64,000 nucleotides of DNA from Spartobacteria bacterium (GCA_947471565.1 CANIVT010000007.1:6909-70908), one strand, 5' to 3'; numbered from the stretch's first letter, positions 37,789-64,000 are shown. Numbers and translations are program-made. The notes: generated from the letters alone by a model not told the origin.

Positions 37789-38682
37789 TCAGTTCCCTTT
37801 GGAGTCAACCAGCTTGGAAACGGCGATCTCGTTCAGGGTCACCGGATTGTCCTGCAGTAGCTTGGCCAAGTAGGCCTTGCCGAGCACCTGGGCCTTCTGG
37901 TTGCGCAATTCGTTGGTCAGCGAAGCCTTCACCTCGTCCAAGGAAGCCGTGTAGGGATCCTTGACCTCCGTGAGTCGCACGATATGCCATCCGTCATTCA
38001 GGCGGATCGGTTCGGTTGTGCCGTTCTTGGAGAGGGCGGCGACGGCCGAGCGGATCTCAGGCTGGATCTGTGATTCCGCAAGGAAGCCAAGATCCCCTCC
38101 CCGCTGGGCACTCGCGGCATCATCGCTCTGGGTCTTGGCCACCGAAGCAAAATCACCGGCCTTTGCCGCTTTCACGGCGACATCAAGCCGCGACTGGGCC
38201 TTTTCCTCAACGGCCTTATCAGCTCCCTTGGGGCAGGCGATGTAGATCTGGGAGAGATGATACTGTTTGGGAACCTGCAGGGCATTCGCCTTCTTCAACT
38301 GGTCATAGGCTTCCTGCAGTTCGGAGGCAGAGGGGAACTCCTGCGGTGGGGCTGCAACGGATTGCAAATAGGACTGGGTGATCGCTTGCTGGCGCATCTT
38401 CTCCAACGCCGCGACGACTTGGGCCTGCTGGTCCCATTTCCTGGAGAGCGCCTCTTTGTACACCAACTGCTGGATAATCAGTCCGCGAACATATTCGTTC
38501 AGGGCGGCGGGATTCTTGGAAAGGGCGAGCTGATCCCGCACCGAGAGTTTCTCGATAAACGGCTTGATGTCGTCGGAGCGCACCTCGCTCCCGCCGACCT
38601 TGGCAATGACGGTGGAATCAGCGGCCGTCACGGAGAGCGTGAGGGCGATGAAGGAAAGAAGGAGGGTTGCTTGGGTTTTCAT
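37789..38682 (-). CDS. PpiC/parvulin-type peptidyl-prolyl isomerase, exported
   Basis: signal peptide; [27 protein letters not shown]. Confidence 0.9.
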
Positions 38683-38730
38683 AAAGTGTTTTGCGGAGAT
38701 TTTTCGGGAATGTTGAGGGATAGGATCCTG

Positions 38731-39414
38731 TTAGTCGACTTTCTTTGCCTGAGCGCTTGAGCCCGCAGCAGGAGAGACCTCTTGCTTCTCCGGGCGGATG
38801 GTCTGGTCAGAGAGCTTGTTCTGATAATCCTGCACCAGGTTCTGGAATTTCACCTTGGTCACTCCGACGAAAGGCTCTCTGGCCGCAATGGCCGTTCCCA
38901 GACCGAACTGGGCGTAGCGGTCGAGCACCTCGTTGGCAAGGCGGTACATCTCGGCGTTGCGCACCTGCTGATCGGCAATGCGTCGCTCGAGCAGAATGCA
39001 CTTGGAGGCAAATTCGGCACGCTTTCCCTCGGTAGCCTTGGCGTAGTCGGCCAACTTGGCGTAGCCCTGCTTCCACTTGGAGAGCGACTCGGTGAGGTGA
39101 TTCCCGATCATCTCGCTGTTGGCCAACTTGGTGCGCAGATCATCGATCGTCTCGTTGGCTGTCTTCCGCTCGGCCGCAGACTTCTTGGTGAGTTCCTCAA
39201 GTTTACCCTGCAGCTCCTTGACCTTGTCCTCCGCCTCGGCCTGCACAGCCTGGGCGGTGGCAAGTTTTGCGTTTGCATCGCGGAGTTGGATCATGGAGTT
39301 CTTCACCGCCTCACGCATCTTCTGCATGGCGGGATCGGCCTTCTCGGCGGCCTTCAATGGAATGGAGGCAAGTAGAAGGGCCACCACGATCACGGGGTAT
39401 AATTTCATGCTCAT
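38731..39414 (-). CDS. exported coiled-coil protein (PA0697-like)
   Basis: signal peptide; long heptads; C-terminal REPFVG..NLVQDY. Confidence 0.72.
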   Translation of the reverse strand: MSMKLYPVIVVALLLASIPLKAAEKADPAMQKMREAVKNSMIQLRDANAKLATAQAVQAEAEDKVKELQGKLEELTKKSAAERKTANETIDDLRTKLANSEMIGNHLTESLSKWKQGYAKLADYAKATEGKRAEFASKCILLERRIADQQVRNAEMYRLANEVLDRYAQFGLGTAIAAREPFVGVTKVKFQNLVQDYQNKLSDQTIRPEKQEVSPAAGSSAQAKKVD

Positions 39415-39426
39415 GTTCGGGAATTG

Positions 39427-41844
39427 TTAGAATCTGGCATTGACGTCCAGTTGCAGAATATCGGACTTGTACGTGGGGCCGGCGATGCCGGTGGCACTAA
39501 GCCACCGTGCCCCGATAAAGACGTTTTTGCTCAAGGCAAGATTGCCTCCCACGGAGAATCCCTTGAGGTTGGTTCCACCTCCGCCAAAGTCCGAATCGCA
39601 GAAGCCGTCGATCACTGCATCGGACTCGACATAGCGGTAAGCGACGCCGAAATCCCAATCCCAGCGTTTCTGAAGGGCTCCGTGTCCAATCTTGGCCTGA
39701 ACAATCCAAGCTGTGTTTCCACCGTTGTAGGAAGTGTAGTTTCCATTTGCCAAGTTGTTCACCGGACCACGCGGAAGGGCCTGATTGTAGTTGTTGTCGG
39801 GGCCGGGTAGCGGGCCGTTATTAAGGATATTCTGAGAATTCCAAGCAACGTTACGATCCCATTCACCCGATAGAGAAACTAGGAAAGGTTCCCAGTGCTT
39901 GTATTCAAGACGGGCATTCGCAGAGAGGATATTGTACGGCGTCGCCAGTCCAAAGTATTGCCACTGGTTGATGTAGTAGGGGTCTACTCCCTGCGTAGGA
40001 TCATTGATGTAGTTGGCTTGGGGATTTCCCGTGGGGATTCCGTTGGCATCGTAAGCGTCGACTTTCTGGATATTTCTGAGCGCGACATATGTGTTGCCGC
40101 GCTGAGCAAAGGTAGGCCTCGTGTCGTCGGTATTCAACTGAGCCTCTTGATTAGGCGTAACCCCAGGGGCCGATACTTTACCCTGCACATTCTGAAAGTA
40201 ATAATAACCCGCAGCGCTCTTGAAGTTGAGGTCCCTTGTGATTTTCCAGTCGATACCCACTTGTCCGGCATAGAGGTACTTGTCGTTACTGGAAATCTTG
40301 GGTTGTTGGGTTGCAGGGAAATTCAAATCGGTATTGTAGACAGGAAAGATTCCACCACTGATGAAAGGAGTGAATCCTTTGAGGATTTTATATCGGGCTT
40401 GGGCTGCAACGCCGTCAAAGCCGATGTCATTCGCCCACATGATGGTGGTCGGTGTGAAGAAGGGATTGTCAAACCGGCCCAGGGAAATCGCCGCCATCCG
40501 GTCAGGGTCATCTCCGATCTCATACTTGAGGAAAGCACGGTCCAGCCAGATCGCGTAGGAACTGAAGTTGCCACCCTGGGCCATTCCTTGGTTGCCAACA
40601 AATCCGAAGGTCTGATTTTCAGAAACAGGGCTTCCGTTCTGACCCGTTCCGATCCGGAATCCGGAGGTGAAGTTTTCACCCAGATTCATATCCGCGCCGA
40701 ACCTGAACCTGACACGCGCCAGATCGCGTTGCTGGGTCGTGTTGTAGGTGGGCGGTCCCACGGGATTCTGGGCCTGATAATAACCAAAGTAATTATAATA
40801 TTGTGTCGCACCAGGAATCGCCATCAGGTTGACCGGCCACCCCGTGTTGATGGCGTTGTAGTTCATGGTCTCAAAGAGATCCGTGCTATTGCCGGAAGGA
40901 TACTCGTTGGCTTGGAAGCGTGTTCTCAAATCCATGAAAGGCCGGAACTTACTCAGCCACTCGGGAATATTGGGTTGGTTCCACCCCTCGGCTTGGGCAG
41001 CAGCCATGACATCTCGCTTGATCTCATCCTTCATCTCCGCCTTCACGATCTCTGGAACGTAGGAAACGCTGACCTGATCATCCGATTGAGGCGGAGCCGC
41101 GGCCTCGACCGCCATCTGCTGGGCGGCGGCAGCCTGAGTCGCGGCTTGTTGGGCTGTCTGCGCCTGTTGGGCGGCATTCTTTGCATCGTCCTGGGCCTGA
41201 CGGATCAGGTCACCTGCATCCTCTTTGGTCAGGATACCGCGCTGGACGAGTCGGTTGATCAAATTGAGCGTCACGTTCTCGGAAGGAGGAGCTGGCGCCG
41301 TGGCCGCCATCTTATCAGGCGGTTGATCCATATTGGGGGGCTGATCCACAGGAAGCGGCTTGATCGTGGGAGCAACCGTGGAAAGAGAAGAAGTGGTGTT
41401 AGTAGCCTCCAGAGGAGACGGCGTGGCAGAAGACTTTACTGCATCGGGTTTTGGCTCGGAGGTATCAACGGATAACGCTGTGTTCGTAGAAGGAGCAGCA
41501 GGAGTCGCGTTCGTGGAATCACTCGGCGATGCTGGAGCTGGCACTTGTTGCGAATCGGTTGAGGGCACCGGAAGGGTCGCTGAACCCGCTGTAAGTGCCG
41601 CATTCGATGCTCCAGGATCCGAGGAGGAAGTCGTAGGCGTGAGACTGATTGGGGGAGCACTGGAAACTGAGGCGGCGGCATCCGCCATGGCGGCAGTGTC
41701 CGAGGCCAACGAGGAGGCCGTCGATTGCTGCGAAGACTGCGTGCCAAACAGCGAGTCAGCCGCCTTGGTGAGGCCAACCGCCATCACCATCAGGAAAAGC
41801 CAAAGGAAACCCTTTGCCAGCTTTGAGATCGGATAAGATTTCAT
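39427..41844 (-). CDS. putative porin (outer-membrane beta-barrel, PA0696-like)
   Basis: NLINRLVQRGIL, IWLDRAF, DSDFGGGGTN, C-terminal LDVNARF beta-signal. Confidence 0.85.
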   Translation of the reverse strand: MKSYPISKLAKGFLWLFLMVMAVGLTKAADSLFGTQSSQQSTASSLASDTAAMADAAASVSSAPPISLTPTTSSSDPGASNAALTAGSATLPVPSTDSQQVPAPASPSDSTNATPAAPSTNTALSVDTSEPKPDAVKSSATPSPLEATNTTSSLSTVAPTIKPLPVDQPPNMDQPPDKMAATAPAPPSENVTLNLINRLVQRGILTKEDAGDLIRQAQDDAKNAAQQAQTAQQAATQAAAAQQMAVEAAAPPQSDDQVSVSYVPEIVKAEMKDEIKRDVMAAAQAEGWNQPNIPEWLSKFRPFMDLRTRFQANEYPSGNSTDLFETMNYNAINTGWPVNLMAIPGATQYYNYFGYYQAQNPVGPPTYNTTQQRDLARVRFRFGADMNLGENFTSGFRIGTGQNGSPVSENQTFGFVGNQGMAQGGNFSSYAIWLDRAFLKYEIGDDPDRMAAISLGRFDNPFFTPTTIMWANDIGFDGVAAQARYKILKGFTPFISGGIFPVYNTDLNFPATQQPKISSNDKYLYAGQVGIDWKITRDLNFKSAAGYYYFQNVQGKVSAPGVTPNQEAQLNTDDTRPTFAQRGNTYVALRNIQKVDAYDANGIPTGNPQANYINDPTQGVDPYYINQWQYFGLATPYNILSANARLEYKHWEPFLVSLSGEWDRNVAWNSQNILNNGPLPGPDNNYNQALPRGPVNNLANGNYTSYNGGNTAWIVQAKIGHGALQKRWDWDFGVAYRYVESDAVIDGFCDSDFGGGGTNLKGFSVGGNLALSKNVFIGARWLSATGIAGPTYKSDILQLDVNARF

Positions 41845-41881
41845 GCGTTGTTGAGAATTTATAGAAAGTGCTTGATGACCT

Positions 41882-42562
41882 TTAGTTAGGGCGCTTGGCG
41901 CTGAAGTGCATGACGATCGGCATTGGCATTCCCGCGGGCGGGGGCTCAGGCATCGAAAGTTCGGCGAAGGCCTCGCTGCGGATCGCGTTATCCACATCGG
42001 GATTGCCCGTCGACTTGGCTAGGCTGACCTTGGAGACGTGGCCGGTCTCATCCAGCCAGACCCTCACCTGCACATCCATGACGGCGCTGCGGGTCTTTTT
42101 ATTGCCCAGTAGGCAATTGACCATGCGGTTCTTCACCTGTCCGGCGTAGTAGCCGAACTTGGAACCGCGTCCCCCGCCCATGCCCCCGCCCCCGAATCCG
42201 CCACCCCCTCCGTTGCCGGCGGCAAGACCCGAGGCGTCGTTACCCTGGATACTGGTGGCAAGCGGTGCAGGCTCGGGAGCCTTGTCGGGCGGCTTTTCGT
42301 CCGTCGGAGCCTCTTCTTTCTGGAATTTGGGTGCATCCGGAGGCGGGGGTTCCTGCTTGGGGGGCGGCGGCGGAGGCGGCGGAGGCGGCGGAGGGGGAAG
42401 CGAGATCATCTTGATCTCACTCTTCGAAGCGGGTGCCCCGCCGTCATCGTCACCGTGGTGGAAGATGAAAAACGCCACGACACCACCCAACACCACAACG
42501 CCGCCGATGATCAGCGGCAGTGGCAGCTTTTTCTTCTCAGGTGATGTCTGCGTGACGGGCAT
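41882..42562 (-). CDS. TonB-like energy transducer (TM, Pro-rich linker, TonB_C)
   Basis: N-terminal TM, poly-Pro, C-terminal VRVWLDETG..STGNPDVD. Confidence 0.85.
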   Translation of the reverse strand: MPVTQTSPEKKKLPLPLIIGGVVVLGGVVAFFIFHHGDDDGGAPASKSEIKMISLPPPPPPPPPPPPPKQEPPPPDAPKFQKEEAPTDEKPPDKAPEPAPLATSIQGNDASGLAAGNGGGGGFGGGGMGGGRGSKFGYYAGQVKNRMVNCLLGNKKTRSAVMDVQVRVWLDETGHVSKVSLAKSTGNPDVDNAIRSEAFAELSMPEPPPAGMPMPIVMHFSAKRPN

Positions 42563-42589: not shown

Positions 42590-42991
42590 TTACTGGCGCT
42601 TCTGCGTGGCAAGACCGACCTTCTCCATCCCGATCCGGCCGATCACATCCAGGACATCCATGACCCCCTGATACTGTGTGGCGCTGTCTCCTCGGACCAC
42701 GACCGGCGTGTCGGCATTGGCCGACTTGGCCTCGGTCAGTTTCTGCTCCAACTCGGGCAGGGTGACCGGGAGAGTATTCAGGAAGACAGCCCCCTCGCTA
42801 TTCACGGTGACGGCCTGCGTCTTGGGACCACCCATGCTGGGCGCGGAGCTTCCCTTCGGAAGATTGACCTTCACCCCCTGAATGCCGGCCGTCGTCATGA
42901 TGATGAAGATCAGCAAGAGCACGAGATACAGGTCAACCATCGGCGTGACATTGATGTCGGCGATGGCTTCTCCTCCGGAATCGGCTTGCAT
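42590..42991 (-). CDS. exbD: ExbD/TolR biopolymer transport protein
   Basis: INVTPMVD..LVLLLIFI, VRGDSATQY. Confidence 0.93.
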   Translation of the reverse strand: MQADSGGEAIADINVTPMVDLYLVLLLIFIIMTTAGIQGVKVNLPKGSSAPSMGGPKTQAVTVNSEGAVFLNTLPVTLPELEQKLTEAKSANADTPVVVRGDSATQYQGVMDVLDVIGRIGMEKVGLATQKRQ

Positions 42992-43026: not shown

Positions 43027-44856
43027 TCAATGCGCCGAGCCTTCCGATTTCTCAGGATAGCATTCGGCCATCTTGGTCAGAAACTCCTCAAGGAAGAGGT
43101 GGAGGTCCGTCGTGATGTCCTTAACCTGGACGCTCAGATAGTTGTAGCCGAAGAGCGCAGGGATCGCGACGACCAGACCGCAGACAGTCGCCAGAAGCGC
43201 GGCCGCGATACCTGGAGCGATGGCGTTGATGTCCACCTCTCCGAGCATGGCAATCTCGCCGAAAGTAATCATGACGCCGATGATGGTTCCCAGCAGGCCG
43301 ACATAGGGACCGCCGGCGATACAGATCGTGAGAAGGACCATCATGCTCTGGAGCCTTGCGTTCTCACGTGTGATCTGGGCACTCATGCTGGCCTCGATGG
43401 CCTTGACGGAACGGTGGGCAAGCCCCTTGCCTTCAGCAACCCTAAGGCGGATTTCCTGACAGCCAAGATGATAGACCCTGTAGATAGGGGTGGAGTGGAT
43501 GAACTTGATATGAGCCGCCTCGGCTTTTCCACCCAGGGTGGCCACGTGCTCGTCATCCTCGGTGTCGAGCGAAAGGAGCTCCCCCCGCAGGTGATGCCAC
43601 TGGTTCATGAACTCCTTGGACCCCTTGGCCATCGAGGAGATGTACTGGTTCTTGGCCACCATCACGATCCAGCTGATGGCCGACATGATGCCGAGGATCC
43701 CGATCACCACCCATGCGTCGAAGGTGACCGATTTGATCAGATAGCCAAAGAGTCCGAGGCTATCGAGGAAACTTACCTTGGCGGCCTCCGGCTTTCCTGG
43801 GACGAGAAGCTTCGCGTTCTGTTGGCCCTGACCGAGGGCGGCTAGCTTGATGAAACCCGCGGAGCGGGCGGACTTGGAAATTTCCATCTCGTCGACTTCC
43901 CCCTTGAAGGAGGCTTTCCCCTCCTCCCCTCCGATGAAGGCTGCACTATTCAGAGCCGGAATGGCAACCGGCAGATTGGCGACCGCATTGCCGTCGACAT
44001 AAAGCGTCGTGCGGGTGCCGTCCGAAACCAAGGCAAGATGCTTCCAGGAACCGGCCGCCAGCGGGGCTGCCGGGGTCGAGCGCTGGTTGCCGGCGGCATT
44101 CGTGATCTCGAAGAAGGGAGCGCCGCTATCGAGGCCGATTTTAAGCCCATTGGCCCCGTCCTTGCGGCTGTAGATGATCGCATTGGGATCGAGTGAGGTC
44201 GGCTTCACAAAGCTCATCCAGGTGTAGGGAGCCGACTCAAGAACGGCCGAGTTGGGGTTTGCCGGGATGCTGATCGGCTTCTTTCCATCGAGTTTGATGC
44301 CGCCCCCGATCATCGATCCCTCGACAGGGATGCCGGGCGTCTCGGCGCGGACACCGTTTCCGGAGGAATCGCCCGGAGGAGTGCCGTGCTCGTTGAAATG
44401 ATAGACCGAGACTGTGTCGGCATCATAGGCCGTCTTGGGGAGGTCGGTCTTCTCTCCCTTGGCTGGTTTTTTCTTCTCGTTACGGCCGTAGTAAAGGTAG
44501 ATGTCGCGGGACTGGCCGGGCTTGATGTCGGGGATCTTGACCCAGACGAAGCCCTCGTTCATGACCGGATCAAATTTCTCAATCTGGGAGGCAAGAAGCG
44601 TCTTGTCATCGGAGTCGACGAACCGGAGATCCGTACCGTCCTCCTTGCACTGGGAGAAATCGAGGACCCCGTCGTGAAGACGGACCAAGACGGTGGCCGT
44701 TCCGGCAGCATCAGGGAGAGGGACCCCGTTGTCGGTCGTATCAACAGTGAATTTCTCGCGGGCCGCCCAGGCCTCGTTCCACCAGGTGCGCGCGTGGAGC
44801 GAACCAGATGCCACAAGCATCAGGGAGAGCAGAGAGAGCAGGGATCGTAATTTCAT
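43027..44856 (-). CDS. DUF2341 + LamG-like + MotA/TolQ/ExbB fusion
   Basis: DGTDLRF..WVKIP; WKHLALV (LamG); GPYVGLLGTIIGVM..APGIAAALLATVCGLVVAIPA. Confidence 0.9.
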   Translation of the reverse strand: MKLRSLLSLLSLMLVASGSLHARTWWNEAWAAREKFTVDTTDNGVPLPDAAGTATVLVRLHDGVLDFSQCKEDGTDLRFVDSDDKTLLASQIEKFDPVMNEGFVWVKIPDIKPGQSRDIYLYYGRNEKKKPAKGEKTDLPKTAYDADTVSVYHFNEHGTPPGDSSGNGVRAETPGIPVEGSMIGGGIKLDGKKPISIPANPNSAVLESAPYTWMSFVKPTSLDPNAIIYSRKDGANGLKIGLDSGAPFFEITNAAGNQRSTPAAPLAAGSWKHLALVSDGTRTTLYVDGNAVANLPVAIPALNSAAFIGGEEGKASFKGEVDEMEISKSARSAGFIKLAALGQGQQNAKLLVPGKPEAAKVSFLDSLGLFGYLIKSVTFDAWVVIGILGIMSAISWIVMVAKNQYISSMAKGSKEFMNQWHHLRGELLSLDTEDDEHVATLGGKAEAAHIKFIHSTPIYRVYHLGCQEIRLRVAEGKGLAHRSVKAIEASMSAQITRENARLQSMMVLLTICIAGGPYVGLLGTIIGVMITFGEIAMLGEVDINAIAPGIAAALLATVCGLVVAIPALFGYNYLSVQVKDITTDLHLFLEEFLTKMAECYPEKSEGSAH

Positions 44857-46659: not shown

Positions 46660-46739
46660 GGAATCTATCCGCTAGACGCTTAGCACGAACGAAGCGAGTT
46701 GATTATTTAAGCGTTTTCTCCTTCAGGAAGGGAACTTAA

Positions 46740-46761
46740 AATTGTGACAAAATCGTAACGC
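46740..46761 (-). promoter_or_regulatory. candidate Pho box upstream of the tpsB operon
   Basis: GCGTTAC-GATT-TTGTCAC-AATT, 11-bp period. Confidence 0.4.
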
Positions 46762-46797
46762 CCAAGCTCGTTTTTATGTGCAAGAAGTAGAGATCCT

Positions 46798-47031
46798 CTA
46801 TGAACTCTCACGATCCTTGCTCTCAAGACGAATTCTTGTACTCGTCTCAATCTGGACCACCAGGCCCTCATGCACGGTGATTCCGATGGTTCCGAATCGA
46901 AGCCTCTGCACGTGTTCCTCGACAATACCGATCCAACCAGGGGAGGAAAGCTTCACTTCGGCCGCTAGGGATGGTTGGCCGGAGAGCGTCTGTTGAGAGT
47001 GGGCAATTGCAGTCATGAATGGATCAAGCAT
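46798..47031 (-). CDS. DUF2292/YezD family small protein
   Basis: LRFGTIGITVHEGLVVQIETSTRIRL. Confidence 0.75.
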   Translation of the reverse strand: MLDPFMTAIAHSQQTLSGQPSLAAEVKLSSPGWIGIVEEHVQRLRFGTIGITVHEGLVVQIETSTRIRLESKDRESS

Positions 47032-47370
47032 CTTAAAGACGTCCTTTATGGTCGTGTATTAAAAGTTCAGCAAGATTTTTTCTGTATCCCCAAGTGATTT
47101 TTTTGATCGGTCCGTGATGCAGCAAAGAAAATTTCTCCAAAAACGCTTGACCGGAATTATTATGTCGACCATTGTGATCGCATATTGATGCGCGGCCACC
47201 CTATACTCCGGGAGCATTCATCAAGCACTATCGACCATCTTCGGATCAGCAACCTCATTCCAAGGAGCTCATCCAAAATCCAACCAAGACGACAACCAAC
47301 AACCCAACTCCTTGATCCAACCCGAAGGAAAAAAGACCCAACATATCAAACACTTGACCAACCAAAACCA

Positions 47371-48135
47371 ATGAAAACAATTTACACCAGATTACTGACT
47401 GCCCTTGCGGCCATAGCGGGAACGGCTTTGTCCCTCATGCCTGCAAGCGCAGCTCAGACTTACACGACTGGCGACGTCTTCGTCGGCTTCCGTTCCACGA
47501 CCAGTCCCAACAACGGCCTGATCATCGATATCGGAGATATCAGCCAGTTCACAAACGCGTCGAGCTTCTCCAATTTCAGTTTTGGAGGCGCCAGCACGAC
47601 GGGGGCCGACTTGGCATATCAGTTCGGCTCGGGGTGGTACACCGACCCGACGGTCACCTGGGGTGTCTTCTCCGCTGTTACGGGACAATATGCCTTGGCA
47701 TCAAAAGTGCAGCCGGTGAATGGAACCCTGTCCACGACCCCAACAGCCCTGAACAACACCAAGACAGGAGCCCTTATTACGGGCATCAATACGGTGCAGA
47801 GCGGTTTCGTCACATCGACCGCGGCCACCTACACTGCGAACTCAGCCTATCAGACCGGAACGGCCAACGGCACTTATTACGCCGCTGTGAATGCAAACCC
47901 TGACTTCACTTCTGCGGCGTGGGCGGCCGGATCGAGCATTGAAGGAGCCGTTGGAAAGCTGCTGGATCTCTACTATTTCACGCCAAATGCCGTTCAGTTG
48001 CTCAACCCCTCGGGACTTGCCCTCTCGATCAACAGCACCGGAACCATCACTGTCATTCCGGAGCCCTCTACCTACGCATTGATTGGCTTGGGATCCCTCC
48101 TGCTGATCACTGCTTACCGTCGGAAATCGGCATAA
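47371..48135 (+). CDS. PEP-CTERM exosortase-target protein
   Basis: signal peptide; C-terminal IPEPSTYALIGLGSLLLITAYRRKSA. Confidence 0.95.
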   Translation: MKTIYTRLLTALAAIAGTALSLMPASAAQTYTTGDVFVGFRSTTSPNNGLIIDIGDISQFTNASSFSNFSFGGASTTGADLAYQFGSGWYTDPTVTWGVFSAVTGQYALASKVQPVNGTLSTTPTALNNTKTGALITGINTVQSGFVTSTAATYTANSAYQTGTANGTYYAAVNANPDFTSAAWAAGSSIEGAVGKLLDLYYFTPNAVQLLNPSGLALSINSTGTITVIPEPSTYALIGLGSLLLITAYRRKSA

Positions 48136-48187
48136 AAACACCAACGCACCAACTGCAACTTTTCAAAACCAACAACGCTCAATACCC

Positions 48188-49525: not shown

Positions 49526-49569
49526 CCGAAAAGACCGGGAAATTCCTGTTCCCGGCACACAGACTCAGG

Positions 49570-49601: not shown

Positions 49602-49625
49602 GGATGGGATCTTCCGAAAAAACGC

Positions 49626-56600: not shown

Positions 56601-59600
56601 TGCCGCGCAGGTTCATGGAGTCCGTAGCCCGGATGATCAATCGGGCGGCATCCTCAACCGGTGCCGTGTCGGAGGTTCGCGGAAGAAAGGTCGAAGCTAA
56701 GGAAATCTGATACTCGGCACGGCGGGAAACAAGGGATGGAGACGCCACTTCATAGAGAGAGGAAAGCTGTTCTCCTTTGCCGTCCAGCGAACTGGATCTG
56801 CTCCCGGCGACCATCGCCGAACCATCGGGTCGCTGAAGACTGTCGGGGGCAAGATCCTGCATGAGACCCATGGGAGTGATCAGGTAGGCACCGGGCATGA
56901 TGGCGTAACGTGACGGGAGCAGGGTATAGATCCCGGCAGCGAGACCACCGCCGGCAGCGAGCGTAATCCGATCTCCAACGCCAAGCGATCTGGAGACATA
57001 TCCCGGATCACCCGCCGTCTTGTTGACATCACCGAAGGGGGCAAATGGCTGCGCCAAGGGGTTAAAGCCGGGAATGACCGCGTAACTCTCCCGAACCCGG
57101 CTCCAGTAAGAACCCACAGCAGGTGTTTCCCCACTGTTGTCCTGCCTCGCCGAGTAAATATCCCCGTCGAAAACCACACGGTCTCCCTTAAAGTAGGCCG
57201 TGGAACTGCTCCAATCACCTCTGGACTGTCCGGCAGGGTCGATTGTGCCGCGAAGACCACCAATCCAATCGTATGCCATCAGGTCCCCTCCACCGGAAAG
57301 AAGGACCCTTGATGTTGTCCCCGTGATGACCTGCCCGGCAGAAAGCGTGACTCCCCTGGCAGGGAGCCCTGAAACGCTGATGTCATTGCCAGCAGGATCG
57401 ATCCACTGGGAACCGTTGAGGATCACTCCGTAGGGCATCGTGACTCCCCTGCCTGTCACGACATCGATTCCCGAGACCGATGTCGTTCCGCCGTCCTCAA
57501 GACGCACTACGGATGACACCGGGACGGTGGTCTCCACAGGAATTGGATCGGTGTCATAAAGGCGTACAATACCTGCACCCGTTAGCGGATCCTCGGGCGA
57601 TGATCCCGAACCATCCCATCCCAGCTTGATCATACCGAAGGGGGCGACCATCGTTCCACCCTGACTGATCGAGTGGGCGTAAACCGAGATGTTCCCTCCC
57701 GCCGTAAGAGGCAAGGATCCGGGAACACCGGCCTGCTCCACGAGGACCGATCCTTTGGTCTCCCCGCGGTCATAGGAAACCAGGTTGAAGGAGGCTTTGG
57801 TCATGGGATAAATCATACCGGCAATAAGCTTGAGCTGACCGGCCATGGAAAAGGTCCCGTTACCGCGAATTTCACCCGGACCCGCATCAACGGTCACGCT
57901 ACCCATTCCCTTGACCAGCGTGTTGCCAAGATCCGCAACACGAGCCCGGATCACGAGGGATCCGGTACCGCCTGAGGGGGAGTCATATCCCCCCAGGGCA
58001 AGTCTGGACCGGCCGTCCCCGGGGGCAAGCGGAGCCTCAAAGAAATTTCCCACGGAGACATAGGGAGACAAAAGTTGCACCGCGGCATCCCCCGAGATCA
58101 CTCCTCCCGAGGCAACCGAGATGCTCTTGTCAGCGGCAAGCGAAACTGGTCCTAGAAAACCGAGATTTCCTGAAAGAACAAGGCGGTCAAATTGCCCCCG
58201 GTCAACGATGTCAGCCGACAGGTACCCTCGGCTGATCCGTCCTGTCAAATCACTGGCCATGACTCCAGCAAGCCCCTCTTGGTTTTGCGAGATGAAAAGA
58301 CTTGTCCCAAAGATCACGGAAGGGGGAGAGGCAAAATCCAACGGGTAGAACGTACCGGAGGATACCGTTAGCTGGCCACCGGAGGCGGATGACCCTCCGG
58401 CTAGGGCAAGAAGATCACCCTTGGCAACAAGGTACTGATTCCCCAAAAGTGTGATCGCTCCTCCATCTGAGGCGATGTTTCTGGTTTGGTAGGGGAACGC
58501 CCCCCCGGATCGAACGGACACGCTTCCGGAGGAACCCGACACATCGACGACCGATCCTTGAGAAAGGCGGATGTTACCTGTCATGGAAACTTCGCCGCCG
58601 CGAAGCACCGAGGCCACCGAGGCCACCGCGCGCCCGATCATCCCGGGATCGCCGATCGAAAAAGTGGCTCCGGCGGCGGAGACCCTTGCGGTCGCGCCCA
58701 GTTCTAGGGTCGGCTTGGCAAACGGCGCACCGCGCACCGGATCATAGTTGTCGGGATAGGAACTCGCTGCAGATAGGGTGATGCTGCCGCCTGGCACATC
58801 GAGCATTCCATCAACACTCGTGATCTTTCCTGTGACGGCAAGTCTTGAGGTCTTTACCAAAGGGGTGACGGAACCCATTTCTGTGAGCGAAAGTTGAGGA
58901 TCAAGCCTGATTGATGCTCCGCTTTGGATGAGGGTCCTACCCCTCACCGAAATCAATCCACCGCTTGAAATACCCAGCGCACCTAATGATACGCTGACTG
59001 CCGGTCGCATTCCTTCAGGCAGCAGAACCATTGAGTAGTCTCCGTTCGGTTTCAGGATGCGGTTAATCACGGCCGGGTGAATCATAGTTCCTGCCGTGAC
59101 AAGCATGCCCGGCATCTCATCGTCCGACGATCCTTCCGCAACTGCGACACCGATGCCCGAGAGGCTGAATTCCGCAAAACCTCCGTTGTTAAAAAATTCG
59201 GGACGGAGGCCAAGAATACCCGCTACATAACCTTCATTTCCGATACGTATGGATGGAGCAGTCAGTGACAAGGAGCCGGCATTCGCGTTCAGGCCAGCAT
59301 ATCCCTGCAGCGTGGAGTTGAGATTGAGTACCCCTCCACCGAGGGTTCCGTATTGTGCATCGACTCCTCCCGATATCTTTATCTTACCGGCATCCCCGTA
59401 AACGACTTGTCCTGCTGTCGTGAGCAGATAGGCGCCGGAAACATCGACAAGACTTCCCTCATCCAGCGATACACGGAAGCCCTCCACGGACACTCTACCT
59501 CCATCCGATGCAACAGGAGAGGAATAGGGGTCGCCCCAGTTGCTGGACGGTATTCCTGCCGTGGACAAGACAGCGGAAGGTCCGATTAGAACCCCTCCTC

Positions 59601-62600
59601 TCGATGCGTTGCCCAGCGATGGGAAGGAACCCGCATCCTCGTACGAACGGATCTCGTCGTAGCCAAAACTATTCGCCGACAGCGATATCGTACCGCCTGG
59701 CACCGACACCCTTCCAAAGATGTCAATGTTGCCGGCAGAGAGTTCAAAGCGACCTCCCGGTGCCATGGAGAGATCCGTCCCCACAGGCAGCAGGATCGAG
59801 CCGTCATGGTTGTCGATGTTGAGCGAACCGATCCCTCCTTTCGAAAAATACGAGGTGGAAAGAATGATCCTGCCGTTGTCGGAAGCGGCCCCGGGATCCT
59901 TGGAAAAGACCAACTGCTGTGGCTGCGGCGACTCGAAACCACCGTCAGGCCTTAGGCTGAAAACACGTAGCGTCAGGCTCGATTGTCCCGGCAAAGCACT
60001 GGTTTCGGGTGTGGAGCGTGTCTGCCTTGCCCCCGAAACAACGAGGCCCGTCATCGTTCCAGCAAGCTCCATGGAGGGGGACCTGAGCAATACCGATCCC
60101 CCGGCGCCCCCGCTGATATAGGGGGACTCGCGTACAGGCTTGGGATTTTGCACGAATCCGGCATAAAAGCGGTCGGGCGTCGCCTTGGAGATATCCACGA
60201 CCGTTCCCTGGCTTGTGAGTAGTTTTGTTGTGGTGAATTCCCCGCCCGAGTACTGGATCCATCCGCCCGAGACGTTCAGCAGGGAATCCCGGGCCAGACT
60301 GAGCCTGTCGCCGGATCCCAAGGAGATATTCCCACCCTCAACGGTCAACTCGCCGACCGTCCTCTGGATCAGCGATGCGTAACCCGTGGCATCGCCCAAG
60401 GGTGTGCCGATCCAATACTGCCCGTCATACACGCCGCTGATCCGCGCATCGACCGTGATGTTCTTTGCCCGGACAATGCTCTCGCGCTGAAGGGGCGAGT
60501 TGGCCAACTCCGGTCCGCGCAACTGGAGTGTGATGAAGTTTTTTGAACTTTCAACGCGCACCGAGGTCGAGCCTGAGACATCAATCACGCTACCCTCGCC
60601 CAGGGTGATGCTTCCCCCGTTACCTCCTCCGTAAGAACCAGATAAAAATTGGCTTTTGTCAACGGAAGACGAATCACGGTACCAGTTGCCGCTCAGGATG
60701 CTGACCCCCGCCTGAATCGTTGCCGCGGCGGACCCGCGGGCAACCGATGTCATGTCGAGAAAAGCGGTGCCAGAACCGACCTTCGCTCCCGGCGCGACCA
60801 ACACGGAACCTGCGTCGAGGCTCACCCGGTTTCCCAGAATGCTGATCAGCGAGGGCAGTGCCAGCGAAGTTCCGGGTGCTGTTTCCAGGCTGTCCCATTC
60901 CGGCAACAGCCTGATGACTCCGGTTCCCATCATCCTAAACGATCCGGAAGTGCCGTCCGAAACGGAGTGGTCGTAGTAATAGGGGCTCCCCAAGGAATTT
61001 GCCGAAACCGCCGCGTTATAGGATGAGACGATATCCACCCTCCCGTTGAGGGAGACCGAGGTCGTTCCGTCGATCACACCGGAATGAGTAATGGATGACC
61101 CGGCAAGAGCGGTGTGTCCCCTGGGAATCTCGATCAATCCGGCATTGAAGACGGTGCCGGCATTGTTTCCTCGGGGCGCATTGAAATCGATCAGTCCGTC
61201 AGCGCCCAGTTTCGGACCATTGTCGATGCTTCCCCCGGAAGAATCGGAGATCCTCCCGATGTAGACATCCAGACCGCGCAGACTCGGATCATCGGATGGG
61301 TGCGCGGCCAATCCCACCTGGAGTCCTGCTGCGAGGATCGTCTGCCCGTCGGGCGTCGCAATCGTTCCTGAATTGGCAACGCTGGCCCCTACGAGCGCCA
61401 CACGACCTCCGATCTTTGAAGACGAGGATGGGGAGTAAATCAATGCCCCCCGCTCCGCAATTACTGCTCCGACATTGGCAGCTGCAATCGATCCGGAGAT
61501 ATCGGATCCAGAAGACATATCTGCAGAGAGCGGCTTCGAGAGGTTGATCATTACGGAGCCGTCATTGTTTGCGGATACGGAAACCACTTTGGTTCCGGTT
61601 TCGATTCCGGATCCCGTGACGGAATCCCCAGGCCTGTAAGAACTGGCCGGAGCAACCGTGATCGATCTGTCCCCTGTTACCGCGCGGGAAGCGAGCGTCG
61701 TCGAAAGGGGATCGAATGAGTCGGAACCCGCCCGCGAGGCACCCGATGGCAAGGCACTGAAAAGGAACTGGTATCCCGGATTGTTCAATAATCCGACCCC
61801 CTCGATCCCCTTCATGGGATCACCTGCGAAGTAGGGGTTGATGGGGAGGGTGGAGGCAACCAAAGAGTGGACATTCACCTCGGAGCCGTTGTGGAACATG
61901 ATCCCGTCCTGGTTGAGAATATAGACCTGCCCCCTCATGTTCTCGGTTCCCGGAGTTCTGCCCCCTGAGGTTATCCTTCCGTAGATGCTCGAGGGGGAAG
62001 CCGTGCCCGTGATCTTGTTGAAGGCAATCCACTTGCCGGCATCCGCACCGCCCCTGCTCTGGTCGAAATTCACCGTGGTTCTCGGACCCACATTGAAATT
62101 CTTCCAGTAGAGATAGGCATTCTGCTCCGTCTGGGTGATCTCGACGTTGTGGTCTCCCGAGGACTGAAGACCGGTCTTGTCCGCATTGATGGATGCGCCC
62201 TTCCATGAGGTGGTCAGGGGCTTTCCGGCACCATCAAAACCATCGTGCGGGTGAAGCCAGTTGACCGCGAGGCCATTGGGGATTGGTTGCCCATTTGGGA
62301 GTAGAGGGGTACCTGAGCGCGCCGCTGCCTTGGCTGCGGCGGCGGCGTTCTGCTGCATGGCCCTCATGGCACCGACAGCCGTATCCGACCGCTCGATCGA
62401 CTTGCGGGCGAGGGCCGCTGTCATCGCGGCAGAGGCCGCACCGGCATTCTGAAGATTGGAGGCCGCGCCGCGACCGGCAGTTCCTGTGGCCGATCCACCT
62501 GTCGTTCCCAGCGTGATGGCCAGGAGAGGCTTTCCTGCCCAGGGCAATAGCACAAGCACCCAAAAAGCAAAGACGATCGATGTGGTCGTCTTTGCTTTTT

Positions 62601-62622
62601 GAGTTATCCTTTTTGGGTGCAT
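50653..62622 (-). CDS. giant filamentous hemagglutinin-like TpsA (TPS domain + DUF3739 C-terminus), ~3,990 aa
   Basis: signal peptide; AYLYWKNFNVG..VYILNQDGIMF; beta-helix repeats; GGDIMIWSDKGDIAAG..GNVDLIAPSGFIDAGDAGIR; alternative start at 62637. Confidence 0.93.
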   Translation of the reverse strand: MHPKRITQKAKTTTSIVFAFWVLVLLPWAGKPLLAITLGTTGGSATGTAGRGAASNLQNAGAASAAMTAALARKSIERSDTAVGAMRAMQQNAAAAAKAAARSGTPLLPNGQPIPNGLAVNWLHPHDGFDGAGKPLTTSWKGASINADKTGLQSSGDHNVEITQTEQNAYLYWKNFNVGPRTTVNFDQSRGGADAGKWIAFNKITGTASPSSIYGRITSGGRTPGTENMRGQVYILNQDGIMFHNGSEVNVHSLVASTLPINPYFAGDPMKGIEGVGLLNNPGYQFLFSALPSGASRAGSDSFDPLSTTLASRAVTGDRSITVAPASSYRPGDSVTGSGIETGTKVVSVSANNDGSVMINLSKPLSADMSSGSDISGSIAAANVGAVIAERGALIYSPSSSSKIGGRVALVGASVANSGTIATPDGQTILAAGLQVGLAAHPSDDPSLRGLDVYIGRISDSSGGSIDNGPKLGADGLIDFNAPRGNNAGTVFNAGLIEIPRGHTALAGSSITHSGVIDGTTSVSLNGRVDIVSSYNAAVSANSLGSPYYYDHSVSDGTSGSFRMMGTGVIRLLPEWDSLETAPGTSLALPSLISILGNRVSLDAGSVLVAPGAKVGSGTAFLDMTSVARGSAAATIQAGVSILSGNWYRDSSSVDKSQFLSGSYGGGNGGSITLGEGSVIDVSGSTSVRVESSKNFITLQLRGPELANSPLQRESIVRAKNITVDARISGVYDGQYWIGTPLGDATGYASLIQRTVGELTVEGGNISLGSGDRLSLARDSLLNVSGGWIQYSGGEFTTTKLLTSQGTVVDISKATPDRFYAGFVQNPKPVRESPYISGGAGGSVLLRSPSMELAGTMTGLVVSGARQTRSTPETSALPGQSSLTLRVFSLRPDGGFESPQPQQLVFSKDPGAASDNGRIILSTSYFSKGGIGSLNIDNHDGSILLPVGTDLSMAPGGRFELSAGNIDIFGRVSVPGGTISLSANSFGYDEIRSYEDAGSFPSLGNASRGGVLIGPSAVLSTAGIPSSNWGDPYSSPVASDGGRVSVEGFRVSLDEGSLVDVSGAYLLTTAGQVVYGDAGKIKISGGVDAQYGTLGGGVLNLNSTLQGYAGLNANAGSLSLTAPSIRIGNEGYVAGILGLRPEFFNNGGFAEFSLSGIGVAVAEGSSDDEMPGMLVTAGTMIHPAVINRILKPNGDYSMVLLPEGMRPAVSVSLGALGISSGGLISVRGRTLIQSGASIRLDPQLSLTEMGSVTPLVKTSRLAVTGKITSVDGMLDVPGGSITLSAASSYPDNYDPVRGAPFAKPTLELGATARVSAAGATFSIGDPGMIGRAVASVASVLRGGEVSMTGNIRLSQGSVVDVSGSSGSVSVRSGGAFPYQTRNIASDGGAITLLGNQYLVAKGDLLALAGGSSASGGQLTVSSGTFYPLDFASPPSVIFGTSLFISQNQEGLAGVMASDLTGRISRGYLSADIVDRGQFDRLVLSGNLGFLGPVSLAADKSISVASGGVISGDAAVQLLSPYVSVGNFFEAPLAPGDGRSRLALGGYDSPSGGTGSLVIRARVADLGNTLVKGMGSVTVDAGPGEIRGNGTFSMAGQLKLIAGMIYPMTKASFNLVSYDRGETKGSVLVEQAGVPGSLPLTAGGNISVYAHSISQGGTMVAPFGMIKLGWDGSGSSPEDPLTGAGIVRLYDTDPIPVETTVPVSSVVRLEDGGTTSVSGIDVVTGRGVTMPYGVILNGSQWIDPAGNDISVSGLPARGVTLSAGQVITGTTSRVLLSGGGDLMAYDWIGGLRGTIDPAGQSRGDWSSSTAYFKGDRVVFDGDIYSARQDNSGETPAVGSYWSRVRESYAVIPGFNPLAQPFAPFGDVNKTAGDPGYVSRSLGVGDRITLAAGGGLAAGIYTLLPSRYAIMPGAYLITPMGLMQDLAPDSLQRPDGSAMVAGSRSSSLDGKGEQLSSLYEVASPSLVSRRAEYQISLASTFLPRTSDTAPVEDAARLIIRATDSMNLRGKVEGAGSNGGRGAMIDLASTANFRIGRTPDPAAILLDHSVLSSWNAGSLLIGGVRQVTGSGFSVAPMTSLVTVENSVSPLAASDLILASGGGVVLEDGSAIESRGTMKAEDLEVSGNGALIRVSSDPLAIVTRSGTGTAPVRGYDLGEQVSVSGGSVTLDSSGGGDVAESVRFDAQGLNLNAGKIVLSFGDASKAADTMQIGGDFLRTLTRVASISLNGRDGIFFKGSGTIGSSSLRSLALHTSMLRGDDVSSVTIDSGSVLMDNPYTASGSLAANGGSLIINTGTLIRGRGEIKLSGFQNVTLNAFAGIVGRGTGALSVAGSLFLNAPSLTGEGASSSVFSAQGNLTTSLLGTMPTILDPGLGASLTLRGNAVALNAPVLLPGGSFVAESTGSDRDLVISSRVDVGGTVQRFDDLAKYVDAGNITLSSGRDVRLGDGAILRLDALANGGSAGTLAVNAVNGTLDIGLGVISAHSGSSGLSGNLVLDLGTYGTGDLSELESLLTQSGFTESQGIRIRNGDVTLAGAKAHSYSLSADSGSITVTGSIDASGVTGGNISLYAGKSVLFKSGATLDASGDEFDSAGKGGYVTLEAGNNPSLGSAGVAAMGVSGSFASDAWVIDLGGGVIDLSVDEVSGLGQSSGRLHLRAPQTADNKDVQVNPIATTIEGASAIVVEGVFRQDAATTGTASIDTQAAVWDSTTSYTTGTKVLYNGQLYTAKRTGRNFTPPNGTYWTATPDTSFKQKALDNATSFMAYADAVRSRILPADPSSKAALAGILEINPGEEIVNSRGSLVLNNDWDLSLARYGRQVSILDASGNVTGRTIGRSSGFLSLRALGDLTFNGSLSDGFGDSVNRAANAGGNNYGLYFAPLLPVVSSDLGDPSKTFGQSSWSYSIAAGKDFSSADPLAVSSEGSINLGKPTKTSSALASSVGQNASTATIISGNYQVIRTGTGDISIAAGKDIRLLNQFATIYTAGAQVADPTLGGAFDPHTMPVIFRNSQRVNFGTLQQPALYPAQYSVRGGDVQLRAAGNIRHLQLSSDGLSYIADSSRQLPGNWLMRRGQTDATGGWLTLPNGEITSTSWWIDFSNFFQNVGALGGGNVSMRAGGDISNVDAVVPTQGRLTARDPAGIQLVPQQGSLIETGGGDVTVQAGGNIDAGIYYVERGNASIRAGGAIVSNKTRDVAGAYLYSLVSRRSEYANPSEETWLPTSFLLGRGAISVKAGGDMLLGPVGNVFLLPQGFINGVQYKNYFSTYGSESAFSAISLGGSVTLRNQILGLPAFQKWLQSSVMGNQAPPQSAGYYQPWLRLAELQPADPILGAGARLMPGNVSLTALAGSVLIQGDATLAPSARGNLSIYAMDGINGLNRQQKGVRWSYSTLNVSDADPRTIPSPLSPLSQSQLNFWPALDTTYLNANSSYSTLPFYLENFSTSLNETLSTEGDDASLQGKVLRHDQSLLHLGDSDPVRVYSPGGDISGIRLFSPKLARIVATGNIRDVSLALQHVSSSDVSSVISGGGMTLFDANTASRNEARKDLGANVAFLPEPLSGDVQISGPGTLQVFAGENLDLGTGDARPDGSGAGITSIGNARNPSLPFEGASLIVGAGLASARQLGLGASDTEGLLRRAAGMDSAQAYFAELMRVVSAQGDKSLSEELDRAGSIAGIITSPIEEDAKSRIALSLFYVILRDSGRNHGDPRSKDFGTYRQGRVAIESLFPGVASGGGVILNSRNIRTKSGGDISVLAPRGGVALAEYSVGSSLAPPGIVSEGGGSVNMFSRDSVTLGIGRIFTLRGGDIMIWSDKGDIAAGSSSKTIKSAPPTRVLLDPQSAAVRTDLAGLATGGGIGVLAAVAGIPPGNVDLIAPSGFIDAGDAGIRSTGNLNLSAREIRNADNILVGGVTVGAPPVAPSAGPITAPPPAAPPAGATAATAAANSASANTARNTSPAQADPPPSVFSIDILGYGGDEEEEERKSANASQPPVQASL

Positions 62623-62740
62623 ATTGGCCACTAACAATTATGCGAGAACCCATGATAAATCAACTATATAATCAGTCGTTTATTCAGGGGTTCATTCTCA
62701 CCACAAAATCATAAACTCAGGCATGATCACGGGAGTCTCC

Positions 62741-64000
62741 TCAGCGCACTTTGAGAGCATTCACGCTGGTCAGGATGCCCGAGATCATCGAGTAGGCCAC
62801 GATGCCGACGAAGAGCGCCACGATCAGGATCACCGCGGGTTGGATCAGGGATGTCATGACCTGGATCCGGGTTGAGAGTTCCCGGTCATAGCGCTTTGCG
62901 GCGCGCTGCAGGGAACCGGACAGATCCCCGGTCTGCTCCCCCACTCCCAGGATATCGAGAAGGACGGGAGGGAAGAATCCCGTTCTTCTCATCGCCCCTG
63001 AAAGAGAGGCTCCCTCACTGATCAGGAGAGTGATTTTTTCCAGCAATCCCCCGAGGTAGACATTGGTCGTCGATCCACGGAGTAATCCCATGGAAGCCAT
63101 CATGGAAACGCCGTTGGAGACAAGCGTGGAGAGATTCTGCGTCGTCTCGGCCAGGAAGCGCGCGCGGAGCACGGGGCCGACCACGGGCAGGTCGAGTTGA
63201 GCCTGATCCCACCAGGCTCTTCCTCCCGGCGTCTGCAACCCCGCCTTCACCCCGGCTGCGACCAGCAGGGCTCCGAGGAGCAGGGCCCACCAGTAATGGC
63301 CGCAGAAGAGGCTCACATCGATCAGGATCCGCGTCATGAGCGGCAGCTTCTGGCCTGACTTCCCAAGCAGCACCGAGAGCTGGGGAACTAGGAATGTCAG
63401 AAAGATGAACATCAGCAGGATCGCCGAGGAGAAGACAATCGAGGGATAGACCAGGGCTGAGGAGACCTTCTTGGCCAGTTCCCCGACCATCTCGAGGTGC
63501 TCGCACTGACGCTTGAGGATTTTCGGCAAGACACCGGCCGCCTCCCCAGCAGCGACCAGATTGCAGTAGAGCGGATCAAAGGTCCCCCCGCAGCCCCTGA
63601 GGGCGGCCGAGAAGGAGACACCCTCGCGCACCTGCGAGCGGAGACGGGCCGAGACCGGACCGATCGGGGACTTCTCCTGTCGCTCGGCAAGCACCCGCAG
63701 GGCCGCCTCCAGCTGGAGGCCCGCCTCCAGAAGCTCCGAAAGCTCCTCGGTGAAGAAAAGAAGCTGCTGCCTGCTGAACCGGGGAAGAGGGCCAGCGGCG
63801 TTGCTCTCCTGATGGGTGGTGGTTTTCTCCCCTTGACGCGCCCTGGCGACCTTGGTTTCAGATCCCGAAATGATCAGCGAGACCGGCTGCAACCCTTGCT
63901 CCCGAAGCTTGCGGTAAGCGTCGGCCTCGGAGAGCGCCTCGATCGTCCCGCGCTGGGTTTTCCCCGCATGATCGTTGGCTTGGTAGGAATAAGAGGTCAT
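62741..64000 (-). CDS. gspF: type II secretion system F (GspF/PilC) protein
   Basis: QLSELL-like EELSELLEAG, GEAAGVL, ALVYP, GEQTGDL; ATG at the window edge. Confidence 0.93.
   Translation of the reverse strand: MTSYSYQANDHAGKTQRGTIEALSEADAYRKLREQGLQPVSLIISGSETKVARARQGEKTTTHQESNAAGPLPRFSRQQLLFFTEELSELLEAGLQLEAALRVLAERQEKSPIGPVSARLRSQVREGVSFSAALRGCGGTFDPLYCNLVAAGEAAGVLPKILKRQCEHLEMVGELAKKVSSALVYPSIVFSSAILLMFIFLTFLVPQLSVLLGKSGQKLPLMTRILIDVSLFCGHYWWALLLGALLVAAGVKAGLQTPGGRAWWDQAQLDLPVVGPVLRARFLAETTQNLSTLVSNGVSMMASMGLLRGSTTNVYLGGLLEKITLLISEGASLSGAMRRTGFFPPVLLDILGVGEQTGDLSGSLQRAAKRYDRELSTRIQVMTSLIQPAVILIVALFVGIVAYSMISGILTSVNALKVR

Follow-up and report, generated by a model that had tools for sequence, protein, structure and literature searches.

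A conserved set of two-partner secretion, Ton-type motor and Porin_5 genes in a lake verrucomicrobium and its putative counterpart, the Pseudomonas aeruginosa pdtA to PA0699 cluster

The core of the gene cluster with which this paper is concerned has been on record in Pseudomonas aeruginosa since 2009, is there among the sets most strongly induced by phosphate limitation, and includes a private motor and a porin. In strain PAO1 pdtA is transcribed alone, and phdA-pdtB-exbB2D2-tonB4-PA0696-PA0701 form one operon under PhoB and sigma-VreI (PMC4971064). PA0696 and PA0697 have signal peptides, PA0699 is a PpiC-type peptidyl-prolyl isomerase (PPIase), genes for type II secretion (T2SS) are near the cluster, and homologous clusters, with two-partner secretion (TPS), ExbBD and PA0696 components, occur in P. 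fluorescens, Burkholderia vietnamiensis, Rhodopseudomonas palustris as well as Janthinobacterium (PMC2729926). LapA and LapB of PAO1, DING-like members of the phosphate-binding family, are encoded between hxc and pdtA, and the P. fluorescens DING protein Psp has been linked to Hxc (PMC2225411). When phosphate is limiting, PA0696 and PA0698, both of unassigned function, rank with the most enriched proteins (PMC9769906). The locus compared with this cluster here lies in a 64,000-nucleotide stretch from a Spartobacteria bacterium (GCA_947471565.1, CANIVT010000007.1:6909-70908, or G000:C7:6909-70908), from now on the window, whose own numbering is used unless contig C7 is named. The source genome is of 2.28 Mb in 46 contigs, C7 being 104 kb. 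Sequence identical to the window is present in several lake-water metagenomes, and the nearest homologues of its proteins carry names such as Verrucomicrobiota, Chthoniobacterales, Terrimicrobiaceae and Luteolibacter, which makes the assignment to this phylum a reasonable one.

Gene identities were derived from Pfam and NCBIfam searches of the window's proteins, and with Pfam every gene named in an initial annotation of this DNA was found where it had been placed. The heart of the locus is seven genes on the minus strand, as tightly spaced as that annotation had it, with gaps of 12-48 bp from the first to the last. They are tpsB (44875-46659), for a 594-aa Omp85-type exporter with Pfam POTRA_2 and ShlB matches; a gene for a 609-aa DUF2341-LamG-ExbB protein (43027-44856; Pfam), the ExbB/TolQ-type proton-channel subunit; exbD (42590-42991), for a 133-aa ExbD/TolR-type motor subunit (Pfam ExbD, E 9e-25); tonB (41882-42562), for a TonB-like protein of 226 aa (Pfam TonB_2, NCBIfam tonB_Cterm); a Porin_5 gene (Pfam E 4.6e-176) for a stalked porin, the open reading frame (ORF) of which spans 39427-41997 with a likely true start at 41844 (~805 aa); a gene for an exported coiled-coil protein of 227 aa (38731-39414; weak coiled-coil-type matches); and one for an exported parvulin (PpiC-type) PPIase of 297 aa (37789-38682; Pfam Rotamase, E 5e-17).

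Is this one gene set or a chance neighbourhood? With the Porin_5 domain as marker, nine distant representatives were used to scan one genome per species. The loci counted are the 60 proteobacterial ones with full 10-kb flanks and, where the contig was long enough, 12 verrucomicrobial ones, from seven genomes in which Porin_5 matched strongly plus five contigs, metagenomic or from NCBI. The order TpsB, LamG-ExbB, ExbD, TonB, Porin_5, on one strand, is identical in all 60 of the former, which include Bradyrhizobium, R. palustris BisB18, Burkholderia, Lysobacter, Solimonas, Steroidobacter, a member of the Moraxellaceae and others, all Proteobacteria; the same order is kept in all 12 of the latter. 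Since this five-gene core keeps order and strand in 60/60 and 12/12 loci, its linkage is far beyond chance, and the locus is one conserved envelope gene set. Fusion of both DUF2341 and LamG to ExbB is found in Burkholderia as well as in Verrucomicrobia. Beyond the core, a PPIase follows the porin in 50 of the 60 proteobacterial loci and a recognisable coiled-coil protein in 42, a homologue of the latter standing at the same position in every verrucomicrobial locus that extends that far. TpsA is within reach in about half of the 60, and a giant TpsA with TPS domain and C-terminal DUF3739 is present in the verrucomicrobial loci L099 and L105 also. Identities of the window's proteins to those of eight tabulated proteobacterial loci are 37-45% for ExbB (full length), 46-61% for ExbD, 37-39% for TpsB and 31-42% for the porin. 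In a tree of ExbB the copies from Verrucomicrobia, 12 in number, group as a single clade (SH-aLRT 93) separate from 27 of Proteobacteria, which fits a single origin of the cluster in Verrucomicrobia, where a strong orthologue is patchily distributed (about 10 of the 301 genomes sampled from the phylum).

The bridge to P. aeruginosa is provided by Burkholderia. A search with the Burkholderia porin had its best 120 matches all in Burkholderiales, and the contig concerned carries, in order, genes for TpsB, DUF2341-LamG-ExbB, ExbD, TonB, Porin_5, a 229-aa protein, a YbjN-like protein, a 137-aa protein, PPIase, small proteins and a regulator, with the T2SS gene for GspK divergent and upstream of TpsB, an order that mirrors PA0692-PA0701 beside hxc. 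From these likenesses we infer, for the last step to P. aeruginosa in particular, that the locus is the verrucomicrobial form of the cluster pdtA / phdA-pdtB-exbB2-exbD2-tonB4-PA0696-PA0699. The initial annotation had pointed to a P. aeruginosa locus with phosphate-starvation and sigma-VreI control, TPS, ExbB2-ExbD2-TonB4 and a PPIase, in agreement with PMC4971064 and PMC2729926, and had gone on to propose a complete counterpart in another phylum. Of that proposal the same parts in the same order stand, by way of R. palustris, Burkholderia and Lysobacter; the extracytoplasmic function (ECF) sigma genes, phdA and a conserved T2SS link do not.

The giant exoprotein itself is encoded by tpsA1 (50653-62637, minus strand), with an ORF of 3994 aa in which Pfam finds a TPS domain, two CBM_5_12 modules and a C-terminal DUF3739. 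The likely start is M6, the TPS domain is at 156-273, and a Pro/Ala-rich tail follows DUF3739. There is a second TpsA, of 4035 aa and also with TPS domain and DUF3739, at 82.6-94.7 kb of C7 on the far side of the T2SS genes (C7:82610-94700, its upstream genes being at 94800-101100; L002 13611-20000 and L003 1-12119). The N-terminal regions of the two paralogues, TPS domain included, are 78% identical, and the DUF3739 C-terminus is conserved between both and across phyla. With a TPS-domain TpsA and a POTRA/ShlB-type TpsB the pair is, to judge by its domains, a two-partner (type Vb) system, and since tpsB is the sole TpsB gene of the genome both fibres presumably use it.

In the motor, ExbB has a signal peptide and then a DUF2341 plus LamG (ConA-like) region of ~340 aa ahead of the MotA_ExbB channel; given that signal peptide and the known topology of ExbB, these added domains are placed in the periplasm. 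ExbB and ExbD score best with the TolQ and TolR models. The TonB protein combines a membrane anchor with a poly-Pro and Gly-rich spacer and, at its C-terminus, a TonB_2 domain above the tonB_Cterm cutoff, and there is also a weak TolA match. What might such a motor work on? The sole Plug-domain receptor of the genome is encoded on contig C15 beside its own ExbB, and since there are seven MotA/ExbB genes in total, most of the Ton/Tol-like motors must serve other targets. The motor of the cluster is not paired with a classical receptor.

Its neighbour, the Porin_5 protein, is single copy in the genome and consists of a signal peptide, a stretch of ~190 aa rich in S, T, P and A, conserved periplasmic helices and a barrel. 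The S/T/P/A-rich stretch (41130-41844, residues about 30-240), a feature of this clade, is not in proteobacterial Porin_5 (~600 aa). For the Porin_5 domain AlphaFold2 (AF2) predicts three N-terminal helices and a barrel of 16 strands (pLDDT 78). The closest structure in the PDB is that of OmpM1, the stalked attachment porin of Veillonella, with TM 0.74 (range 0.72-0.75), and general porins come next. No Plug or TonB_dep_Rec domain was found in it by Pfam, and no SLH or OmpA-like peptidoglycan-binding domain. It is thus not a classical TonB-dependent transporter, for which 22 strands, a Plug and a TonB box are diagnostic. Between the helices, within about residues 290-350, lies V-x-V-x-Y-V-P-E, the best conserved segment outside the barrel, with Tyr and Pro invariant or nearly so among 28 diverse members. 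That conservation makes the V-x-Y-V-P-E part a candidate TonB-contact strand. Some betaproteobacterial Porin_5 proteins (P0435-P0439) also match PF07396, phosphate-selective porin O/P, which hints at kinship of the two porin families. The parvulin PPIase has a SurA/PrsA-like N-terminal part, and some relatives (L008 10001-12619; P0027, P0030, P0035) have, besides a separate downstream gene for the PPIase, a Porin_5 with a parvulin domain joined to its N-terminus, which argues that the chaperone acts at the periplasmic stalk of the porin. Among other Porin_5 fusions of this Rosetta-stone kind only low-complexity extensions were found.

Between tpsA1 and tpsB the strand changes. Three genes on the plus strand encode a PEP-CTERM protein (ORF 47185-48135, 316 aa; Pfam PEP-CTERM, PF07589, 23.2 bits, cutoff 20.7), an exported protein of 445 aa with a PstS/DING-like fold by AF2 and Foldseek and without a Pfam model (48188-49525), and a protein of 228 aa whose N-terminal part has a membrane helix and whose C-terminal part has the conserved motif ELF(K/R)(A/T)KWGW (49626-50312). 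Back on the minus strand, 138 bp upstream of tpsB, is the gene for a small DUF2292 protein of 77 aa (46798-47031; Pfam E 2.8e-10). The PEP-CTERM protein probably starts at 47371 and would then be about 254 aa with a signal peptide; it reaches 18 bits with TIGR02595 against a cutoff of 16 and has the C-terminus ...VIPEPSTYALIGLGSLLLITAYRRKSA. With such a C-terminal motif, helix and basic tail, and an exosortase encoded elsewhere in the genome (on C5, not C7), it has the sequence characters of exosortase cargo.

These three genes had been considered an inserted island. That view does not hold: they are a conserved part of the verrucomicrobial cluster that is here inverted in place. In locus L099 the genes for TpsA, PEP-CTERM protein, 437-aa protein, 183-aa protein, DUF2292, TpsB, ExbB, ExbD, TonB, an 856-aa Porin_5, a 226-aa protein and PPIase are all on one strand, so the block is collinear there between tpsA and DUF2292-tpsB and cannot be regarded as an insertion; the window matches it gene for gene and place for place, the orientation of the block excepted. 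Of 8 porin-anchored verrucomicrobial loci, 4 have a gene for a 445-aa protein homologue immediately upstream of tpsB and in its orientation, and look-ups that started from the homologues led directly upstream of tpsB in five of six instances, the contig ending too soon in the sixth. The block stands upstream of tpsB in L013-L016, L097-L099, L103 and L105. In L016, L097, L098 and L099 the gene before that of the 445-aa family encodes a PEP-CTERM homologue, an unannotated gene of similar size standing there in L105, and the motif of the 228-aa protein recurs in proteins of 237 aa (L097) and 183 aa (L099) at the same position. DUF2292 is upstream of tpsB in L099 too; in L103 it is among genes for cysteine synthesis. 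Identity between the window and L099 is 95% for ExbD, 81% for ExbB and 76% for TpsB, as against 43-59% for TpsA, 45% for the 445-aa protein and 30% for the PEP-CTERM protein: the surface parts diverge much faster than the motor.

An assembly error behind the inverted block was considered and is ruled out by single contigs from two independent studies that span 46000-51500 without differences. Neither inverted repeats nor signs of mobile elements were found at the borders of the block. Run X9 represents a close relative at strain level, with 22 differing letters per flanking contig; in it 46563-47398, a stretch with DUF2292, the divergent promoter region and the PEP-CTERM gene's 5' end, is swapped for unrelated sequence, the X9 contigs breaking exactly there. 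Duplication has occurred as well. Upstream of the second TpsA, on C7 beyond the window, the order is a 446-aa protein of the PstS-fold family, a PEP-CTERM protein (249 aa), a PATR/PEP-CTERM protein (1105 aa) and one of 247 aa; the first two are a diverged copy, at 31% identity, of the 445-aa and PEP-CTERM pair in the window.

The AF2 model of the 445-aa protein (pLDDT 87, from a 41-sequence alignment) had as its 27 best PDB matches by Foldseek phosphate-binding proteins without exception, of PstS and DING type, the top figures being E 1.8e-11 and TM 0.82 normalised to 4lat. By this model it has a two-lobe type II periplasmic-binding fold. A sequence link to PstS was found neither by PDB profile search nor by Pfam, and a PBP_like_2 search of the genome did not match it. 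A loop invariant in the family, GRNxDAGQR (residues 228-236; here GRNYDAGQR), follows a strand as does the phosphate loop TRADGSGTT in the genome's own PstS; it keeps the Arg and Gly and is without the Ser and Thr of the phosphate loop. The model is best taken to show a binding protein of derived type, in a family for which Pfam has no entry. As a parallel to LapA and LapB, proposed from the sequence earlier, it holds up for fold and position and fails for family.

At the other end of tpsA1, 103 bp upstream on the same strand, is gspF (62741-64000, minus; tpsA1 ends its upstream side at 62637), for a T2SS inner-membrane platform protein of 419 aa (Pfam T2SSF, E 6e-52). Because of the shared strand and short distance (62637-62741) the two may be co-transcribed. 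This gspF is apart from the other T2SS genes, which, as had been anticipated, are present as a full set just past the window: divergent from gspF are genes for a 414-aa protein, two pseudopilin-like proteins, GspK, a PilN/GspL-like and a GspM-like protein, the secretin GspD, which is the only one in the genome, and the ATPase GspE. Is the T2SS then part of the system? In eight cluster-bearing verrucomicrobial relatives the secretin gene is on another contig or ~0.8 Mb away, and the adjacency is not kept among them. T2SS genes are near the cluster in Burkholderia, in an Acidocella and in a Zavarzinia genome, as in the Pseudomonas case referred to above. The association is recurrent, not conserved, and the adjacency seen here is lineage-specific. 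Nor do the 104 kb of C7 contain an ECF sigma or anti-sigma gene, or any other gene of the sigma-70 family (Sigma70_r2).

Other neighbours of the cluster deserve mention. In L103 (1-5600) genes for SrpI-like, cysteine desulfurase, rhodanese, CysE-like, DUF2292 and CysK-like proteins are beside it; near it in L098 (2500-6400) are an SsuA/NMT1-type ABC transporter and two Rrf2 regulators; and in Burkholderia lata (L091 4297-4947) an APS kinase gene adjoins tpsB. A consistent sulfur or phosphorus neighbourhood in Verrucomicrobia was looked for and rejected, since L098 and L103 have sulfur genes near the cluster and nothing of the kind is to be seen in L014 and L016. DUF2292 may belong to a sulfur regulon instead of to the machine. 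Past the PPIase gene rpsO-pnp begins after 26 bp; its polynucleotide phosphorylase (34774-37215, 813 aa) has two near-identical tandem S1 domains at its end, the protein of the relative L007 being of 808 aa.

What could the whole be for? No functional account of Porin_5, DUF3739, DUF2292 or DUF2341 was found in the literature, and no RNA runs containing the window sequence were found. The role that we favour, at a probability of roughly 0.4, is capture and uptake, in which the motor would work Porin_5 for import of a scarce ligand harvested at the surface. TpsB, aided by the parvulin, would export both TpsA fibres, which would be attached to particles by their CBM5/12 modules. The PstS-fold protein would be exported and its PEP-CTERM partner would be a surface protein anchored by exosortase. 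By way of TonB the motor would act on the conserved N-terminal periplasmic segment of Porin_5, not on a classical TonB-dependent receptor, and the channel would be opened or worked for uptake of the ligand, probably one that contains phosphorus or bears another oxyanion. The logic would be like that of the Hxu haem-haemopexin system, capture followed by import, with a porin in place of the 22-strand receptor. Grounds for favouring it are that the cluster is under phosphate control in Pseudomonas, that a partner has the PstS fold, that the fibre has CBM modules and that Hxu is a precedent. A bolder formulation is rather unlikely to be right as a whole: that Porin_5 is a new plug-less TonB-energised channel, that five ExbB subunits, each with LamG, are arranged as a lectin ring in the periplasm, and that with the TPS fibre and, in Verrucomicrobia, the exosortase-anchored PstS-fold protein these make up a surface capture-and-import machine for a scarce oxyanion-bearing nutrient.

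Several considerations weigh against capture and uptake. The link to P. aeruginosa is indirect, by way of the clusters of R. palustris BisB18 and Burkholderia and of PMC2729926. Likeness of the 445-aa protein to PstS is, as the models have it, at the level of fold only, hhalign with the genome's own PstS giving a probability of 0.1, and a ligand other than phosphate is conceivable, the loop having lost the Ser and Thr by replacement. Some of the neighbours described point to sulfur, not phosphorus. The accessory block is found in none of the 60 proteobacterial loci and is missing from 4 of the 8 porin-anchored verrucomicrobial ones, from which it follows that it is not essential to the core function. 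The reading of the V-x-Y-V-P-E segment as a TonB box is tentative, AF2 confidence being low there, and the target of the motor is putative. Finally, a secretion-side role of the motor would suit the chaperone and the place of tpsB no less well.

That last point leads to the strongest competitor, energised secretion or display, which is nearly as likely as the favoured role. Here the motor, through TonB, the LamG ring and a platform of Porin_5 and coiled-coil protein, would thread, fold, retain, tension or release the 4000-aa fibre; it could act on DUF3739 and the tail, which would be the last to leave the periplasm, and Porin_5 would be a platform and not an uptake channel. In its favour are the constant place of tpsB at the head of the motor operon and a periplasmic chaperone sometimes fused to the porin, and the conservation of the DUF3739 C-terminus in both paralogues and across phyla also accords with it. 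The proteobacterial core does work without a PstS-like partner, and there is a kind of precedent in the Agl-Glt machinery of Myxococcus, which operates an outer membrane adhesin with a TolQR-like motor and TonB-like proteins. However, type Vb secretion is not known to require an energy source at the outer membrane, many a giant TpsA is secreted without any such motor, and a 16-strand open-barrel protein would be left without a role.

A purely mechanical role, in tethering or integrity of the envelope, is improbable. In it Porin_5, the coiled-coil protein and a Tol-like motor (TolQ/TolR/TolA-like) would stabilise or remodel the outer membrane at the fibre anchor, with no transport of ligand, and both the stalked attachment porin OmpM1 as closest structural match and the preference of ExbB and ExbD for TolQ and TolR models, with the weak TolA match of TonB, are in its favour. 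Yet Porin_5 is without a peptidoglycan-binding domain, SLH or OmpA-like, the C-terminal domain of the TonB protein is of TonB type and above the tonB_Cterm cutoff, and phosphate-starvation control in P. aeruginosa (PMC4971064) is left unexplained. Least of all to be credited is that TPS, a spare TonB system, porin, chaperone, T2SS and exosortase cargo are independent systems brought together by chance or island formation, to which the unconserved T2SS, the DUF2292 genes in cysteine context and the exosortase on another contig lend something, and which for the core is already contradicted by an identical order in all 60 and all 12 loci of two phyla at 30-60% identity, by the gene fusions, and by the five of six look-ups for the 445-aa family that fell beside tpsB.

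To what was known of the cluster the verrucomicrobial locus adds the conserved, inverted and duplicated block for PEP-CTERM and PstS-fold proteins, the layout of one TpsB and two TpsA that flanks the only T2SS of the genome, and the negative results on T2SS conservation and ECF regulators. That free-living lake Verrucomicrobia retain all nine parts, each gene included, argues that the cluster is an ancient environmental device, not a virulence speciality, and the PstS-fold protein with its PEP-CTERM partner is in this phylum an independent pointer to ligand capture. Should the motor act on a plug-less porin or on TPS secretion, the known repertoire of Ton-type motors would widen either way.

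It remains to set the locus beside the described systems part by part. With PA0690-PA0701 it has in common, and in the same order, a giant TpsA, TpsB, ExbB, ExbD, TonB, a signal-peptide protein at the porin position (PA0696), PA0697 and PPIase, and both adjoin a T2SS and an exported protein of PstS/DING fold. The contig of the window, however, has no vreAIR-like ECF system, and DUF2292 takes the place of phdA before tpsB; the PstS-fold protein comes from another family, one that Pfam lacks, and its partners are a PEP-CTERM and a small membrane protein; and the genome has two TpsA paralogues per one TpsB. Unlike the Burkholderia cluster, that of the window has no YbjN-like gene between those for coiled-coil protein and PPIase. 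The PstS and DING proteins (4lat, 5j1d; LapA/LapB, Psp) share the fold of the 445-aa protein, which is ~180 residues longer, has R-N-x-D-A-G-Q where the PstS loop has R-x-D-x-S-G-T, and has no detectable sequence relationship to them. In HxuCBA of Haemophilus influenzae, TpsA and TpsB are likewise encoded with a TonB-energised outer membrane uptake component, and the surface TpsA captures the ligand (PMC5422565, PMC4873976). HxuC, though, is a 22-strand plug-containing transporter whereas the partner in the window is a 16-strand porin without a Plug, and the hxuCBA operon is without a Ton motor of its own whereas that of the window is private and has lectin-like periplasmic domains. OmpM1 of Veillonella parvula (PDB 8bym, 8bys and 8byt) resembles Porin_5 in combining a periplasmic helical N-terminal extension with a 16-strand porin; OmpM has a peptidoglycan-binding SLH domain, in contrast to Porin_5, which instead has the V-x-Y-V-P-E segment and whose gene invariably follows one for TonB.

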